A stretch of 64,000 nt of DNA from a phage (GCA_025832235.1 GCA_025832235.1_3649.1); one strand, 5' to 3'. Positions 1 to 34,951 are shown, counted from the stretch's first letter. Notes: a model not told the origin generated them from the letters alone. Program-made: numbers and translations.

Positions 1-122
1 CGCACCTAAAACTGTTTATACTGTTCTTAAAGAGATTGCGTTCTACGCAGATCTTAGCCCGGCACCTTTATGGGAAAAGAGCATGTATTTAAAATGGTGC
101 GTTAATTTAGGGAGGCCTTCCA

Positions 123-2646: not shown

Positions 2647-2870
2647 TGAAAGTTAAAGTTTTAGATTCGAGCTTCTATATTGGTCAGGAGCCCTTAGTGG
2701 GGAAAGTGTTTACTGCTGTCCCTAACGAAGATTACCCCGACCTTTTAAAAATAAAAGGGGCAGATCTTATTGCCGCTGGTGCATCTCAGGAATGCTTTGA
2801 CAGTCAGTGGACCTACAACTTTGCCCTAGGTGAGGATGTAGAGATAGTGGAGGACAATCATGAAGGTTAA
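2643..2870 (+). CDS. hypothetical protein, small early family A (MKVK-LDS...GADLI-AGA)
   Basis: ORF track; paralogous to 2860..3114 (shared MKVK(V/I)LDS, GKV, GADLI(A/T)AGA, acidic VE tail). Confidence 0.6.
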   Translation: MMKVKVLDSSFYIGQEPLVGKVFTAVPNEDYPDLLKIKGADLIAAGASQECFDSQWTYNFALGEDVEIVEDNHEG

Positions 2871-3114
2871 AATTCTTGATTCTAACGTCTACTTGGGACA
2901 ATCCTTCCTGAAGGGAAAGGTCGTTCCTGCGGTATACTTTGAAGGGTTGCCGTGGGATGATCCTGTTCGGCAACATCACAGTTATGTAGGCCACAACGTA
3001 GTGTTTATCTTAGGAGCAGACCTGATCACCGCTGGTGCACCTGAATATTATTTCGGGGAAGAGTCCTATTATGCCTTTGGGGTAGGGTCAGATGCAAATA
3101 TTGTAGAGCTGTGA
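2860..3114 (+). CDS. hypothetical protein, small early family A paralog
   Basis: ORF track; paralog of 2643..2870. Confidence 0.6.
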   Translation: MKVKILDSNVYLGQSFLKGKVVPAVYFEGLPWDDPVRQHHSYVGHNVVFILGADLITAGAPEYYFGEESYYAFGVGSDANIVEL

Positions 3115-3542: not shown

Positions 3543-3833
3543 ATGATGGATTTAGTTCTGGACACTGATAACACCGGAGCGTTTAAAAAGGATGGTGTAA
3601 CAAGCGTTGACCAATCCTTCCCTGCCAAGATTGACTCAAAATGGACCTACAAGTTTGATGGAGAGATCTTCGCAAATGATGAGAAGGTTGTAGATGCTGC
3701 AGCCATTTTGAACGCTCTAGGGTACGACCCTGTGAATTCTTTGATCAAGGATCCTGTTGAGTTTGCAGAGTATGTTCGAAAAATGGCAGATCTTGCTGTG
3801 GATATTTTAAAAACTATCGACAACAATCTGTAA
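3543..3833 (+). CDS. hypothetical protein
   Basis: ORF track. Confidence 0.55.
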   Translation: MMDLVLDTDNTGAFKKDGVTSVDQSFPAKIDSKWTYKFDGEIFANDEKVVDAAAILNALGYDPVNSLIKDPVEFAEYVRKMADLAVDILKTIDNNL

Positions 3834-3839
3834 AAACTG

Positions 3840-3868
3840 TTGACACAACGCTTCAGATTTAGTATCAT
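3840..3868 (+). promoter_or_regulatory. sigma70-like promoter (TTGACA-N17-TATCAT) for the HPF-like gene
   Basis: TTGACA at 3840-3845, 17-nt spacer, TATCAT at 3863-3868. Confidence 0.5.
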
Positions 3869-3876
3869 TGTTTTCA

Positions 3877-3897
3877 AAGAGGGTTTGGTTCCCTCTT
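3877..3897 (+). promoter_or_regulatory. 5'-UTR stem-loop (AAGAGGG-7-CCCTCTT) followed by CTTT; possible dual terminator/leader hairpin
   Basis: Perfect 7-bp inverted repeat between promoter -10 and SD of 3916 gene. Confidence 0.45.
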
Positions 3898-3915
3898 CTT
3901 TAAAAGGAACACGTT

Positions 3916-4233
3916 ATGCAAATTGAAATCACTGGCAACGTAGAAATCACTGAAGGTATGGTGTCTTTCATTTCCAACAAAATGTCTAAACTGGAGCGTT
4001 TGCACCCCTCTGCCAACTATGCACGTGTGAGTGTAAAAGTTGAAAATGATCACCAGGAAGTTATGGCGTTCATTTTTGACAATTCTGGAAAAGAAGTTAT
4101 TGCCAAGGCTAAAGGTAGTGATGCTTACGAGGCAACTGACCGTATGGTAGATGTTGCAGCACGTCAGCTGGCTAAATGCGGTGGAAAGAAAGGTAAGGGG
4201 AAAGGCAAAGTAAAGATTGACTTTGGAAAATGA
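3916..4233 (+). CDS. hpf: ribosome hibernation-promoting factor / YfiA (RaiA) family homolog
   Basis: 105 aa; MQIEITGNVEITEGM...KLERL...VSVKVE...AKGSDAYEATDRMVDVAARQLAK parallels E. coli HPF (MQLNITGNNVEITEAL...KLEQY...VLKVE...AEGQDMYAAIDGLIDKLARQL) recalled from memory; Lys/Gly-rich tail; own promoter and SD. Confidence 0.75.
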   Translation: MQIEITGNVEITEGMVSFISNKMSKLERLHPSANYARVSVKVENDHQEVMAFIFDNSGKEVIAKAKGSDAYEATDRMVDVAARQLAKCGGKKGKGKGKVKIDFGK

Positions 4234-4242
4234 GGTGCTACA

Positions 4243-4344
4243 ATGGGTGTGATTAAGAAATTAGTCCCAAATGTAGAGATTGCATGCTTTGAAATTATGT
4301 TTGCAATCGCAGTTGTAGTTAATGTGTTAGGTTACGGCTATTAA
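4243..4344 (+). CDS. small hydrophobic peptide (33 aa)
   Basis: Hand-translated MGVIKKLVPNVEIACFEIMFAIAVVVNVLGYGY; GAGGTG SD 6 nt upstream. Confidence 0.35.
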   Translation: MGVIKKLVPNVEIACFEIMFAIAVVVNVLGYGY

Positions 4345-4370
4345 TATCAAATAATTGAGGAGACCTCTAA

Positions 4371-4640
4371 ATGAAAATTAAATTATTCAAAACTGAGCTG
4401 GCAGACAAAAACTGTGGACTGGTTGAAGGCATGATTGTTGAAGCACAACCAGTGGACTATATGAAGGTGGTTCGTGATGCCCTGGGTGAAGGTTTTGATC
4501 TGATGGAGCCAGCTCTGCGAGAAGATGTTATCGAGATGGCTAAAAAGCACACACCTGAAGGTTTGGTGGTGTTTGTTGCACCGGGTAACGGAGAAGAATT
4601 GATTGTAACTCCTGATGTGTATGAGATTGTAGAGGAATAA
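4371..4640 (+). CDS. hypothetical protein (acidic C-terminus ...VYEIVEE)
   Basis: ORF track; SD GAGGAG; C-terminal motif shared with 5000..5332, 5807..6064 and 6065..6415. Confidence 0.6.
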   Translation: MKIKLFKTELADKNCGLVEGMIVEAQPVDYMKVVRDALGEGFDLMEPALREDVIEMAKKHTPEGLVVFVAPGNGEELIVTPDVYEIVEE

Positions 4641-4731
4641 TCCTGCTTGGATTAGCATACTTCCTCGATAAGGAAGATTTGTAATTATTTGTGGGAAAGG
4701 AATCCCAATCTCTTACCAGAGGTGATACTAT

Positions 4732-4995
4732 ATGATTGTTTATTTTAAAACTTCAGGTGGATACCCTGATTCTCAAAGCTTGATCGGAAAAACGTGCACA
4801 GCATACTCACCTCTTGATGAGGAGGTAAGCGATATTCTACGAAATATGTATCGGATTGACCCCCAAGAAGCCTTTGATCAAAACCTTGTATTTGTCAAGG
4901 GTTCAGATATGAAGTCTTTGGGAGCATTCCCTGAAGCAGATGATGATGCCGTTTATTCGTTCATGACTCCTTTTGAAGCTATGGTTGTTGGGTGA
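4732..4995 (+). CDS. hypothetical protein
   Basis: ORF track; SD GAGGTG upstream. Confidence 0.55.
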   Translation: MIVYFKTSGGYPDSQSLIGKTCTAYSPLDEEVSDILRNMYRIDPQEAFDQNLVFVKGSDMKSLGAFPEADDDAVYSFMTPFEAMVVG

Positions 4996-30565: not shown

Positions 30566-30969
30566 TGATCAGTCTCCTTCTTGTTAAGTCTGAATACTGC
30601 AATAATAGCATTCCCAAGGTGCAGTGTCAAGTCATTTCCAAGATACCACAGCATTCCACGGTCATCTTTGATGAAAGGGTAGCAATTTGGTGCCTTCTCT
30701 TTAATGAAAGGGTGACAATCTGGTGCTTTCCAGACATTGTACACTTTCCCAACCTGAAAGAAATCAGGCCCTGTTGGGATTTTAGTGCCTGGCCACACTT
30801 GAGATACCTGAACACACTCCACCTGCATAATAACAGGGATAGTCATGGATGTAAATGTTTTTGTTGGTTCTACTACCATAAAAGTCTCCTCTTTGCTCAA
30901 CAACACTTCCATGTGTTGATAGTTTACATTAGTGACAATCACCCCAGTTACGACCACACAAGTATTCAC
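30562..30969 (-). CDS. hypothetical protein
   Basis: ORF track (GTG start overlapping end of polymerase exon 2); true start uncertain. Confidence 0.45.
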   Translation of the reverse strand: MNTCVVVTGVIVTNVNYQHMEVLLSKEETFMVVEPTKTFTSMTIPVIMQVECVQVSQVWPGTKIPTGPDFFQVGKVYNVWKAPDCHPFIKEKAPNCYPFIKDDRGMLWYLGNDLTLHLGNAIIAVFRLNKKETDQ

Positions 30970-31282
30970 CTGTGATCTGGAACGGGACTCCCATCATTTT
31001 AGAAGCTTGCCAGAAGCAATGCACCACCATTTCACCCACAGGGCTCCAGATAAGTTCAAGCTTTCCGTCATCGTTCAGGATAGGATCGTACACCGTGTTT
31101 CCGTCTCTGTCAACCACTTCGTTTCCGTTTTCATCCTTGCGTGCCTTTTTGTACTTATGACCGTCGAACACATGAAGTTTGGCTTCCTGCTCTGCCTTAA
31201 ATGCTTCCAGTTCTTCAATTGTGTCGAAGGTGTACACAGTCTTATACTTCGGTGTGTCAGGCACTTGAAGTTGGTACTCATC
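30929..31282 (-). CDS. DNA polymerase (family A, T7 gene 5-like), exon 2 (C-terminal, begins with the DE of motif C)
   Basis: Translation DEYQLQV...GEYLCGRNWGDCH; C-terminus parallels T7 DNA polymerase ...TEGKMGPNWAICH; no SD or start codon of its own. Confidence 0.7.
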   Translation of the reverse strand, partial: DEYQLQVPDTPKYKTVYTFDTIEELEAFKAEQEAKLHVFDGHKYKKARKDENGNEVVDRDGNTVYDPILNDDGKLELIWSPVGEMVVHCFWQASKMMGVPFQITGEYLCGRNWGDCH

Positions 31283-31558
31283 CAATAGTTCAGGTAGGTC
31301 GTTAAGCTACCCCGCACCATTACGTGCATAGCCATACGTTTTCACGTAGGATCGGACCATCTCATATTCCTATGATAAGCAACCACAGGAATCCTCCCAT
31401 TTCGACCGCACTTGCTGGTCTACTTCCTTTCGGAATGGCCTCTGAGCGTTCGCTCTTTTGAGCGCTTCGTTGCGGATTACCTTGCCATAAGGTTTAGGCT
31501 TCCCGCAGTTAAAGAGGTTATTCGACATAGATTACTCTATGAAGCCACAATGTTATTT
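31283..31558 (-). mobile_element. group I intron (276 nt, ORF-less) in the DNA polymerase gene
   Basis: Splits H|DE of motif C; 5' exon ends in U, intron ends in G; IGS GUGG pairs with exon CCAU; P-like AACUGCGGGAAG (31499-31510), Q-like AAUCCGCA (31471-31478), R-like GCUCAGAGGCCA (31436-31447), S-like GAGAUGGUCC in canonical order; stops in all frames. Confidence 0.7.
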
Positions 31559-34500
31559 ATGGTAATAAATAATACGACGAACACCTTCATCGTACCACCC
31601 ACGCTTCACCATCTGGCGGTGCATGAGTATTCCAACTAAGTCACACAGCGATGCACCACCATTTTGTTGGTATGCATTAAGTAAAGAGTGTTTAGATCTG
31701 GTCCAGATAGCATGACCATCAAAAGAGTAGATAAACTTCTTACCCGTTGCTTCCCAGAATTTCTCCAGATCTTCTTTACGCCCCTTAAGACCAGGGTTGG
31801 CATCCCAGAGTGCATCGATTACCCTTTGTCCCAACTCTGGAGAGATGTCCAGCATATCTGCAACTTTATCTTTTTGTGCCCCATACATAACCCCATACGT
31901 GATAGGTTTACCGTCGTTACGGGAAATCTCCTTGCCTGCTACAGAAGAGTAAGCTTTGGCGTTATTACAGTTACCGCACACTGCCACTTTACCATTCCTT
32001 CTCACAATGATTGCTCCAGAAGGGACGGTAACGCAATAAACCAAAGAACCGCTCACCTCGACAGACTCTTTAGATAGTGTCAGCAACCCTGCTCTCTGTT
32101 TGCTACCAATTGTGATTCTGTGCTGCACGGCACGACCTTTTTTGTGAATCGCCACCGTATTATTCCGTAAACCACACTGAGTAGCCAGCGCAGACACCAC
32201 CTCTACAGATTTCTTCCTGCACTCGGCCTGGGAGTAGTAAGCAACCTTTCCACCTTCGGAAGATACCCACCCGTCCCAGTTAGATAAAGAAGCTATAAAC
32301 AGGTTTTTAGATTCTTTATCAAGGTTCATCAGGTTATAGGTGAAATCCTTATTGTTGTCCAAAAACTCAAATACCCAGGACGGAACGTGGAATTGGAACC
32401 TTCTCGCCAGTAAGCCTCCTTTTGTGGTTTTCCCGCTCTGCTCTACATAACTAAGGCTTAGAGCAGAAAAAGTATCTAAAAGCGTTGCAACTTTTCTTCC
32501 CTTTCCGACCTGAATCCTGCACACGATGCTGCCGTCCTTATTTGTATGCAAGTGCCCATCATCGTGAATAGCAATAAGCAAATTAACCTGGGCAGGAGAT
32601 AAGGTTGTATTCCCATAAAACTCTGCCGCATGGATAAACCTTCTTCCTGAATTAGACCCTTTACCTGCTTTCAGGTCTTTTGCCAAATCTTCAAACAATT
32701 TATTGCTTCTGTGATCCACAGTCAGCATCCTGTGTTGATCTGTAACCATAAAATCCACACTACTGTTGTGGAAATGATACATATCCCCACAATAACTACG
32801 CTTAACGTAATTTAATGGAGTAACAAGGTTCATTGACGAGGTGTTGTGATCGTACTGGAACACTTGTGTTCCCGGATCAAGATCTTCAAACCTCACCCAC
32901 CCTTTCTCCGTGAGAATTTGTGTATCTCCTGAATAACAGTGTGCATCGCCGTTACTTACAACATCGTAATACAGGCCGTTGTCGAACTCAAAGGCACCCC
33001 AAGCCCCGATAAGCTGCTCTAAGTTGGACCCGTCAATACCGATCTCAAAGTATCCTGGAGGAACACCCCACAGACTACGCATCTCTTTACCCATAACCAC
33101 TTTAGGAGATGGTTTAGGCATGTTTGCACAAATACTGTGTTTCTGTCGGGAAGTGTTTGTTAATCCAGAACTTTTAGCAGGAAGCTTATGGTCAATCTTC
33201 AAACGTGGGTGATTAAGAAGACCAGTATCAACCTTATCCTCCTTGATTGGATCAAGGACCGATCTGCGGTTTCGCAATGATAACCACAAGACGATATCTT
33301 TAGCCATCTCTCCGTTCAATTTTTCAAGATTCGGGCATAGGTGTCCAAACGTATCTTTCAGTTGCGGAGAAGTAATAAGTGCCCTAGCTTTTCTACGTAT
33401 TTTCCCGAATACTTCCTTTTTAATCCTTTCGGAGTTAGGAAAGCTTCTGAACTTGTGCACGGTTGTCTGGAACTTAGCATCAGTTTTGTTCCAGAAGTTG
33501 ATAATTAGGTCACAATACTCTGACTCTAAAAGCTCGTCCATATATGCATACACTCGTGCATCAACATCTGCATCAGGTAGAGCTTTCTTCTTGCTGTCTT
33601 TAGTTACATCCTTAGTTCTCCACATTGTCGGAAGCCAACCAGCACTGATCAGGTATCGCTTAATATCGTCCTGATTGCTGATTTTCATAGGTATCTTGCA
33701 GTCAGGCATTCGCTTCTGCTGTAGATCACTTATTGCCTGATCCATTAGCTCTTTAGGTAAAGGTTGTGGTGTGGAGGTGCCCTTGATATAGCCCCTCAAG
33801 AAATCCGCCATCTTATCAGGGTCTTTACAGCCCATCTCTTCACACCATTTTATCCCCATCTTACTGACATCTCCTGTGGAGGTAAATGCTCGCTTAGGAG
33901 GAGCTTTGAATTCTAAAGCACTCATGTCCACAGGGTAGCCAAGCTTGTCTTTTAACCATTTCCAACCATTATTGGAGATTGTCCCATCCTGGTTAAACGG
34001 CTTTTCAGGGAACTTAGGCCGCTGAGACATTGATAACTCTTTTAAAGGAAGTTGTGGTTCAACACGATCAGCGATCTCTTTCATCCACGCATCGCAGCGG
34101 TCACGTAAAGCAATAGCCCCATCTATGTCGAAATACACACCCTGTCGAGCCTGCAGCTCCATCAGGAAATGTTGCAGCATGCCTCGGCGTAATGCATTCT
34201 TCCAGGTAATCTTCTTGAATCCTTTAGGCTTCTCTTTGGCAGGGTCATACATAAAGTTCTGCATGTCAGATTTGCCGTAGAATACACCTTTTGATTCCGC
34301 TACCAACTCTTTCCAGAGCAACTCCTGGATGATAACGTCCTCGAACACACGATCCACATATTTCCACAGCGGAAGATCGCGCCAGTCATCAATTTGAACT
34401 TTCTGGTTACCAAGGGCGTAGCCCCATGCCATAAGGCCGTGAGGACCAACAGGTTGCATTTTCTTAGTAACCGGGTTGAATACAGCGTCCGGACAACCTT

Positions 34501-34951
34501 TTGGTAAAGGGCGATCAGGCCACAAGATTCGGCTCATAGCCAACGTATCAAACAGGTTAACCTGGTGGTCGTTGATAGTCCCCATGCATTTAGGATCACG
34601 GAACATATCAAAATGAATACCGGATAATCTTTCCATTAGCATAAAGTCATAACTGTAGCAGTTATGGCAGTTCAAAGCTGTTGGTGACCAGTCAGAATTG
34701 CCTGTAAGCCAACCTTCCAACTCCGAAAAATCTGCTATGCGAACTTCAAAATCTTTATAAAGAGTTTTCTTTGCCAGAATGAAGTTCTTAGCCTTTTCTA
34801 TATCCTCCTCGGAGTAGTGTGTGCGGTCATTTAGAGGAAGGAACAGCATAAAACGGTTCTTATTCAGCTCTTTAAACAGACCGCAGTGATAATAAAGATC
34901 TGGGTCTTCCAGCAAACCGGATGACTCAAAATCGAAAGACCACATACTCAT
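31559..34951 (-). CDS. DNA polymerase (family A, T7 gene 5-like), exon 1, containing an in-frame intein
   Basis: N-terminal 3'-5' exonuclease motifs (FDFESSG, CHNCYSYD, GPHGLMAWGYALG); motif A IDGSNLEQL; motif B KPITYGVMYGAQK; ends ...RRIIYYH where HDE is expected. Confidence 0.85.
31970..32938 (-). mobile_element. intein (323 aa) with LAGLIDADG-type homing endonuclease domain
   Basis: Block A CYSGDTQILTEKGW, block B LTVDHR, LAGLIDADG-like LLIAIHDDGH and FIASLSNWDGW, C-terminal VYCVTV...VAVCGN followed by +1 Cys; flanking exteins NGDAH|CNNAKAY restore a T7-like NGDIHTKNQIA segment. Confidence 0.75.

Follow-up and report, generated by a model that had tools for sequence, protein, structure and literature searches.

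What separates the codons of two catalytic residues in this phage's DNA polymerase gene, and how could a whole polymerase still be made from it? The window, as we call the entire stretch of 64,000 nt that was analyzed, comes from an rV5-like Vequintavirus, a myovirus; in the region concerned it shares 97.4% identity with Escherichia phage 241Ecol014PP, and more than 100 further Vequintavirus records match there as well. The interrupted gene is the family-A DNA polymerase of this phage. On the minus strand, exon 1 runs as ...UAUUACCAU up to 31559, and exon 2 opens with GAUGAG at 31282; in codons, the strand reads ...CGT CGT ATT ATT TAT TAC CAT / AAATAACATTGTGGCTTC ... CTGAACTATTG / GAT GAG TAC CAA.... 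The length of each exon is a multiple of three, and the two are mutually in frame, so that the joined exons read ...RRIIYYHDEYQLQVP... (ligated product, ...RRIIYYHDEYQLQ...). Without splicing, the frame of exon 1 stops two codons into the insert (AAA TAA, 31558..31553). The start codon of exon 1 is not settled, the rV5 annotation beginning 34 codons further in.

Once the insert and an intein upstream of it are taken out, the C-terminal portion of the polymerase aligns unbroken to residues 490 to 658 of T7 DNA polymerase (E value of 5e-11), and the alignment passes through ...WVHDEIQV in T7 and ...YYHDEYQL in the window, that is, through motif C (VHDE). The insertion point separates the His codon of this motif from its Asp codon (YYH/DEY; H653/D654 in T7), which is site 881 in E. 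coli Pol I numbering. The Pfam model DNA_pol_A scores the spliced protein at 21.8 bits, under its cut-off of 34.3, and because this match is weak, the assignment of motif C rests on the PDB/T7 alignment.

We conclude, with a probability of roughly 93%, that 31558..31283 is a group I intron of subgroup IA2 that splits the catalytic HDE motif of the rV5-like family-A polymerase. An earlier note on this DNA, which had proposed an ORF-less group I intron here, suggested a scan with the Rfam covariance model RF00028. That scan is positive above the gathering score: the match at 31568..31333 reaches 64.7 bits (gathering score, 50; E value of 4e-14) and covers the full model from 1 to 253, which itself ends after P9. 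Even when the threshold is relaxed, no other RNA-family match appears anywhere in the 64 kb of the window, nor was a second RF00028 match found in the window, outside of which the terminase gene lies. The same model matches all 10 intron-bearing sister loci (six ORF-less and four HEG-bearing) and is negative for an intron-less control locus.

The boundaries are exact. In tblastn searches across the junction, some close relatives give a single, intron-less match of 528 nt and others give 804 nt, a difference of exactly 276. The intron-less sister phage EduardKellenberger contains precisely the predicted ligated junction, ATTTATTACCAT/GATGAGTACCAA (full string, ATTTATTACCATGATGAGTACCAA); at the DNA level, the spliced junction can also be written ATTACCAT/GATGAG and ATTATTTATTACCAT/GATGAGTACCAA. 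Spliced proteins built with this junction from MaxTheCat and LL12 are residue for residue those deposited in GenBank (QXV82815.1 and AXC42883.1), and the reading frame through motif C is restored. The earlier note had thus placed the intron correctly at 31283 to 31558 on the minus strand, with a 5' exon ending in U and an intron ending ...CUAUUG before GAUGAG, and its central proposal is borne out by the RF00028 match, the exact boundaries, the restored motif C, and the identity with deposited proteins.

The insert was also described as lacking an ORF of consequence, and this holds. Stops occur in all three frames, and a 52-aa ORF is the only one inside. We judge this ORF to be spurious because its ATG coincides with the 3' strand of P2, JLBYU08 and JEP1 lack it, and Pfam returns no match for it. 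No homing endonuclease ORF was found in the intron, whose longest ORF is this nonconserved one, and tblastn of the window with the HNH genes of sister introns gave no match anywhere in it. The features of the locus are collected in Table 1.

Table 1. Features of the interrupted polymerase locus and of comparable loci in relatives. Intron nucleotide i lies at window coordinate 31559 - i; paired strands are separated by a slash.
Feature	Coordinates	Strand	Intron nt	Details
Exon 1	31559..34951	-		Family-A DNA polymerase, ends ...RRIIYYH; CAT at 31561..31559
Intein, 323 aa, in exon 1	31970..32938	-		CYSGDTQIL...VAVCGN, Cys at +1, after ...NGDAH; 411 nt upstream of intron
Group I intron, subgroup IA2, no endonuclease ORF	31283..31558	-	1-276	276 nt; Rfam, folding, covariation, intron-less alleles
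P1	31545..31562	-	-4..2/9..14	Exon CCAU (31562..31559) plus A1-A2 with internal guide U9-G14 (31550..31545)
P10 guide (putative)	31549..31552	-	7-10	C7-A8-U9-U10 can pair with exon-2 GAUG (31282..31279), one G.U pair
P2 hairpin	31526..31541	-	18-23/28-33	GNRA loop GUAA; 5/6 pairs compensatory
P3, 5' strand	31512..31517	-	42-47/161-166	3' partner at 31398..31393; 2/6 pairs compensatory, 100% of cells paired
P4 enclosing P5 and distal hairpin	31471..31507	-	P4 52-57/83-88; P5 60-62/78-80
P6 and minimal P6a	31447..31469	-	P6 90-91/111-112; P6a 95-108	P6a CGCUC-AAAA-GAGCG
P7, 5' strand (R)	31436..31442	-	117, 119-123/200-205	G117, bulged A118, G119-A123; pseudoknot with P3
P7.1, linker, P7.2	31404..31435	-	P7.1 124-135; linker 136-138; P7.2 139-155 (139-142, 144-145/150-155)	Linker G136-U137-A138
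P3, 3' strand, then P8 hairpin	31366..31398	-	P3 161-166; P8 167-193 (167-172/188-193)	5/6 P8 pairs compensatory
P7, 3' strand (S)	31354..31359	-	200-205	UGGUCC
P9, P9.1, P9.2	31292..31350	-	P9 209-227 (209-215/220-227); P9.1 232-245 (232-235/242-245); P9.2 247-267 (247-252/262-267)	Invariant GAAA loop in P9
Omega-G, terminal G276	31283..31283	-	276	Directly before exon 2; invariant in 7/7
52-aa ORF (rV5 gp222 equivalent)	31370..31528	-		Sole internal ORF
Window equivalents of rV5 hypothetical ORFs	31370..31528, 31075..31335
Exon 2	30929..31282	-		DNA polymerase, DEYQLQVP...GRNWGDCH plus stop codon
Second upstream intron, TH18	614-817 (locus)
Second upstream intron, GEC_vB_MG	1858-2499 (locus)
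Second upstream intron, phiTE	396-1066 (locus)
Downstream HNH gene, 241Ecol014PP	4093-4740 (locus)
Downstream HNH gene, K470	1994-2641 (locus)
Downstream HNH gene, IBT_VpB-34	1689-2429 (locus)
Downstream HNH gene, CB7_48	3666-4151 (locus)

The helices that the earlier note had picked out by eye are all present. In P1, GUGG at nt 11 to 14 pairs with exon CCAU, leaving a U(-1).G11 wobble at the 5' splice site, and the pairs A1-U10 and A2-U9 extend the helix around the loop AUAACA; all six pairs are invariant in 7/7 homologues. The P- and Q-like elements AACUGCGGGAAG and AAUCCGCA form P4 (UGCGGG/UCCGCA), and the R- and S-like elements GCUCAGAGGCCA and GAGAUGGUCC form P7 (G117 and G119-A123 with U200-C205). 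Two of the six P7 pairs are compensatory, and G119-C204, next to bulged nt 118, is a GC pair in every one of the seven homologues. In Tetrahymena, the G264-C311 pair binds guanosine, and by analogy G119-C204 would be the guanosine-binding pair of the window intron. Downstream of the P7 5' strand, P7.1 (UUCC-GAAA-GGAA, with a GAAA loop) is followed by the GUA linker, which is invariant in the alignment, and by P7.2, which has three compensatory pairs. A pair of hairpins, P7.1 and P7.2, joined by GUA and set between P7 and P3', is a published criterion of subgroup IA2 (PMC3428280), and by this signature the window intron belongs to IA2. At the other end, the GATGA that begins exon 2 is invariant in the alignment of the seven ORF-less introns, and its complementarity to nt 7 to 10 suggests a P10 pairing.

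Two loops stand out in homologues that have diverged to 66% identity: those of P7.2 (A.CAAGUG, nt 143 to 150, 31416..31409) and P9.2 (UUAACGA, nt 253 to 261, 31306..31298) are almost invariant, which suggests that they may take part in tertiary contacts. Inspection by eye of L7.2 (CAAGUG) against L9.2 (UUAACGA) across the homologues revealed no consistent pairing between them.

The architecture is under selection, as covariation demonstrates. The comparison set consisted of the window intron together with the same-site ORF-less inserts of six phages (n = 7), namely, JLBYU08 (329 nt), JEP1 (328 nt), TH18 (317 nt), Klebsiella phage VLCpiM5b (343 nt), and the Vibrio phages K470 (254 nt) and IBT_VpB-34 (252 nt), each preceded by ...TACCAT and followed by GATGA.... 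By itself, the window sequence folds to a minimum free energy with a z score of -2.69 (0/200 shuffles fold as well), and this fold draws P1, P2, P3, P4, P5, P6a, P7.1, P7.2, P8, P9, P9.1, and P9.2. RNAalifold on the seven sequences predicts 70 pairs, 29 of them compensatory, and recovers P1 to P5, P7.2, P8, P9, P9.1, and P9.2. It also pairs the 3' strand of P7 with the intron 3' end and exon 2 (columns 359 to 365 with 432 to 438), an alternative that we rejected because P7 has the invariant GC pair and two compensatory pairs.

RNAalifold is unable to draw pseudoknots, and an explicit model was written to include P3 and P7 (pairs as in Table 1). P5-distal, P6a, and P7.1, which vary in length and align poorly in MAFFT, were excluded from the covariation count. 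In the 64 pairs of this model, 99.8% of 446 cells hold a standard pair, and 28 pairs have changed on both sides. Shuffled alignments reached the observed covariation in 0/500 trials on four of five measures and in 4/500 on the fifth (further pair types), and when the 3' partners were slid by 1 to 3 columns, pairing fell to 34 to 40%. For P1 and P6, in which all pairs are invariant, the support is conservation, and P1 lacks covariation because the exon codons within it are conserved.

Given this structure, we infer that the 276-nt intron is catalytic, and it is almost certainly functional. The pre-mRNA would fold into a ribozyme comprising P1 to P9.2, in which the internal guide (nt 9 to 14) would pair with the end of exon 1 and set the U.G wobble at the 5' splice site. 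Free guanosine held in the G119-C204 pair of P7 would then attack this site, after which the terminal G276 would take the place of guanosine in the P7 pocket; P10, between exon-2 GAUG and nt 7 to 10, would position exon 2, and ligation of the exons would restore an uninterrupted polymerase. A homologous intron at the same site in phage CB7 has been demonstrated to splice by reverse transcription-PCR (RT-PCR) and Sanger sequencing (PMC7344957). The isolated phages rV5, LL12, and MaxTheCat carry the 100% identical insert in their polymerase gene, the product of which is presumably essential to these phages.

The intron is already known and annotated, and it is a member of a well-known kind. Escherichia phages LL12 (MH491969, gp212) and MaxTheCat/Bas57 (MZ501094) have the same 276 nt, 100% identical, at the same site. 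The GenBank note for LL12 reads 'intron-interrupted gene; intron splice site predicted based on homology,' the genome announcement of that phage mentions a polymerase gene disrupted by a predicted intron (PMC6658697), and the BASEL collection, to which MaxTheCat belongs, already annotates the exon join. In both records, the intron was predicted through protein homology or comparative genomics only, and the literature searched yielded no paper that folds the ORF-less Vequintavirus intron, places it in a subgroup, or tests its splicing. The window allele further differs from those of LL12 and MaxTheCat in carrying an intein in exon 1.

Comparable introns fall into several types. Within the genus, the AlexBoehm/FV3/APECc02 type (842 nt) shares the site and ribozyme architecture of the window intron but has a 168-aa HNH ORF in P6a (QXV75625.1 in AlexBoehm), and in sister introns generally, the HNH endonuclease ORF is placed where the window intron has a 14-nt P6a hairpin. 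Coordinates from blastn had suggested that the HEG of the AlexBoehm type lies in P7.1; direct comparison, in which window nt 80 to 94 correspond to AlexBoehm nt 106 to 120, rejects this and places it in P6a. The shorter JEP1/JLBYU08 type is a deletion derivative of the 842-nt form, JEP1 being AlexBoehm minus nt 121 to 648. The ribozyme parts of the AlexBoehm type are 83 to 86% identical to the 276-nt form, which argues that the latter is a separate ORF-less lineage and not a fresh deletion of the former. P5 and P7.1 of the AlexBoehm and JEP1 types are longer than those of the window intron. Once spliced, the polymerases of AlexBoehm and MaxTheCat have the same sequence.

Outside the genus, the CB7 intron matches RF00028 and shares with the window intron the YYH/DE site, the 5' end (AAGUAACAUUGUGGCUU), and the 3' end (...AAACUUUUG/GAUGA), but it is 687 nt long with an HNH ORF in its P6 region, and the CB7 gene, unlike that in the window, has a second, upstream intron. 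The introns of Seunavirus GEC_vB_MG and Certrevirus CR9 carry homologous HNH genes (that of GEC_vB_MG is 55% identical to AlexBoehm's), and the HNH of phiTE is a more distant relative (34 to 38% identity). Searching by tblastn with the HNH of sister introns returned 774 records, which indicates a large, unspecific HNH family. According to their published description (PMC3428280), the introns of phiI and W31 (AY769989 and AY769990) are, like the window intron, of subgroup IA2 with P7.1-GUA-P7.2 and lie at site 881, the His of VHDE, and both they and the window intron occur in phages of enterobacteria. In the same description, they differ from it in having an HNH ORF (I-TslI in W31) in P6a, and their phages are T7-like podoviruses with a different polymerase lineage. 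The IA2-type introns in the family-A polymerase genes of SPO1, SP82, Bastille, and Pf-WMP3 resemble it by class and are associated with HNH nicking endonucleases; they are inserted elsewhere, at site 674 within the fingers subdomain, and each of them encodes an endonuclease (PMC3428280). A retron paper that mentions both Vequintavirinae and introns was set aside, as it concerns a group II intron.

Two further observations concern group I introns elsewhere in these genomes. Several relatives have a second, further-upstream group I intron in the polymerase gene (47 to 64 bits with RF00028) that the window gene lacks. Separately, nt 8 to 148 of the window intron match, at 73% identity, part of the terminase large-subunit region in the Vequintavirus phage Av-05, and the HNH of the rV5 terminase intron shares 40% identity with the HNH of polymerase introns in sister phages; on these matches, the terminase and polymerase introns look paralogous.

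Of the 114 Vequintavirus records, 60 were sampled at even spacing: about 31 of these lack the intron, 12 have the 276-nt form, and 17 have a long insert. The insertion site is identical in all intron-bearing relatives compared, and the absent, ORF-less, and HEG-bearing states co-occur within single ICTV species (e.g., V. murica includes LL12, JLBYU08, and EduardKellenberger). When six phages that carry the 276-nt form are compared, the intron has 0/276 segregating sites and the flanking exon has 76/754 (Fisher P = 1.7e-11), so the intron allele is younger than the surrounding exon diversity. A short polymorphism-free stretch extends from about -21 to +12 around the intron, and the other exon polymorphisms form a mosaic.

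These frequencies bear on a first alternative, in which the insert is a decaying remnant, late in the homing cycle, that has lost its endonuclease gene, splices poorly or only with a protein cofactor, and is heading for loss. The minimal P6a at the place of the sisters' HNH ORF, the absence of the intron from about half of the genus, and its RF00028 score, which lies below those of all six ORF-less homologues (69.8 to 91.2 bits), would all fit such decay. Yet every core helix is intact, including the putative guanosine-binding GC pair and the omega-G, the lack of polymorphism fits a young and recently spread element, and the carrier phages are viable isolates; we regard decay as very unlikely.

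Even slimmer is the prospect that the insertion does not splice at all and that two polypeptides, exon 1 ending ...HK-stop and exon 2 starting from an in-frame TTG at 31285, assemble after translation. The stop two codons into the insert and this TTG, 3 nt before exon 2, would allow such an arrangement, many GenBank records annotate an 809-aa polymerase with a separate small ORF, and a nonsplicing precedent exists in the mobE-split NrdA of Aeromonas phage Aeh1, described in the CB7 paper (PMC7344957). The break, however, would part His from Asp within the catalytic HDE triad, a complete group I core with 28 compensatory pairs would go unexplained were the RNA nonfunctional, and the homologous intron at this very site in CB7 does splice (PMC7344957). 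A fortuitous likeness, or an error of assembly or sequencing that interrupts an otherwise continuous frame, is refuted by the Rfam match (E value of 4e-14), the stops in all three frames, the covariation, the same 276 nt at 100% identity in more than 20 independently sequenced phages, and the clean absence at the same base in others, and no point in its favor was found.

With a spliced IA2 intron as the preferred reading, its distribution can be considered in terms of movement. The intron in Vibrio phage K470 occupies the same site and is 67% identical to that of the window, in a polymerase with only 22% protein identity, and the exon DNA of the two is similar over just about 27 nt around the site; judged from these sequences, the pattern is the one classically left by lateral movement into a conserved target. 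Within Vequintavirus, comparison of the alleles indicates that the intron or its flanks have been moved by recombination, and zero polymorphism in the intron against 10% in the exons suggests a recent lateral spread without an endonuclease of its own. The ORF-less form is probably unable to home by itself, so that its spread would be passive, through recombination, or in trans.

That the 276-nt intron is still spreading among diverged Vequintavirus polymerase alleles, mobilized in trans, is a tentative idea that we consider somewhat doubtful. It would be compatible with the lack of segregating sites in the intron and with the co-occurrence of all three states in single species. Candidate drivers would be HNH endonucleases supplied in a mixed infection by sister introns that bear an HEG; free-standing HNH genes directly downstream of the polymerase gene, as in 241Ecol014PP, Vibrio phage K470, and IBT_VpB-34; and hitch-hiking with the homing of the apparently LAGLIDADG-type intein upstream. 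More simply, the intron may have arisen once, recently, with its flanks since reshuffled by ordinary recombination. If the intron is in fact mobilized in trans, it would be a coliphage example of 'collaborative homing.'

Free-standing HNH genes lie directly downstream of the last polymerase exon in four relatives, three of which have ORF-less introns, an arrangement that recalls the 'collaborative homing' of an ORF-less intron and a neighboring endonuclease. Those of 241Ecol014PP, K470, and IBT_VpB-34 are mutually unrelated by blastp, and among these three, only the 241Ecol014PP protein, WLY85645.1, resembles the intron HNH (33% identity). In the window, there is no HNH gene at this position downstream of the last polymerase exon.

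The intein and the intron together make the window polymerase a single gene with two intervening elements. The intein is absent from rV5, LL12, and MaxTheCat, in which the +1 position is Gln, and the flanking residues differ as well (NNAEAYTKVAGREVS against NNAKAYSSVAGKEIS), which suggests that co-conversion may have taken place. Its match to Hint_2 in Pfam is below the cut-off (23.6 bits), two LAGLIDADG-like motifs can be recognized by eye (NLLIAIHDDGHL and NLFIASLSNWDGWV), and it ends in GN in place of the usual HN.

The intron leaves current understanding unchanged, and its practical value lies in annotation: many records still show a truncated polymerase, one or two fictitious 'hypothetical proteins' within the intron, and, as an ORF of its own, a small 'DNA polymerase.' In the RefSeq entry of rV5 (NC_011041), gp222 and gp221 appear as 'hypothetical proteins' located within the intron or overlapping exon 2 in a different frame, together with two 'DNA polymerase' fragments (affected features, 2504-2662, 2697-2957, and 2768-3103 in locus coordinates). 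Many other GenBank records give the 809-aa truncated polymerase, which is exon 1 plus Lys, and that of rV5 is 775 aa; the rV5 genome paper, which reports this 775-aa polymerase, mentions introns in the terminase gene only and missed the one in the polymerase gene. In addition, about 15 records labeled 'Campylobacter phage' (MG0656xx, host Campylobacter jejuni) are 96 to 98% identical in this region to rV5-like phages of E. coli, and some hold the 100% identical intron; the host label of these records looks doubtful.

For the biology of these phages, one genus displays a series of states from the homing cycle: the empty site, the HEG-bearing intron, the HEG-deleted intron, and the minimal ORF-less intron. 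The site within the HDE motif is common to T7-like, Certrevirus, Seunavirus, and Vibrio phages, an illustration of conserved codons in an active site serving as landing pads for introns.
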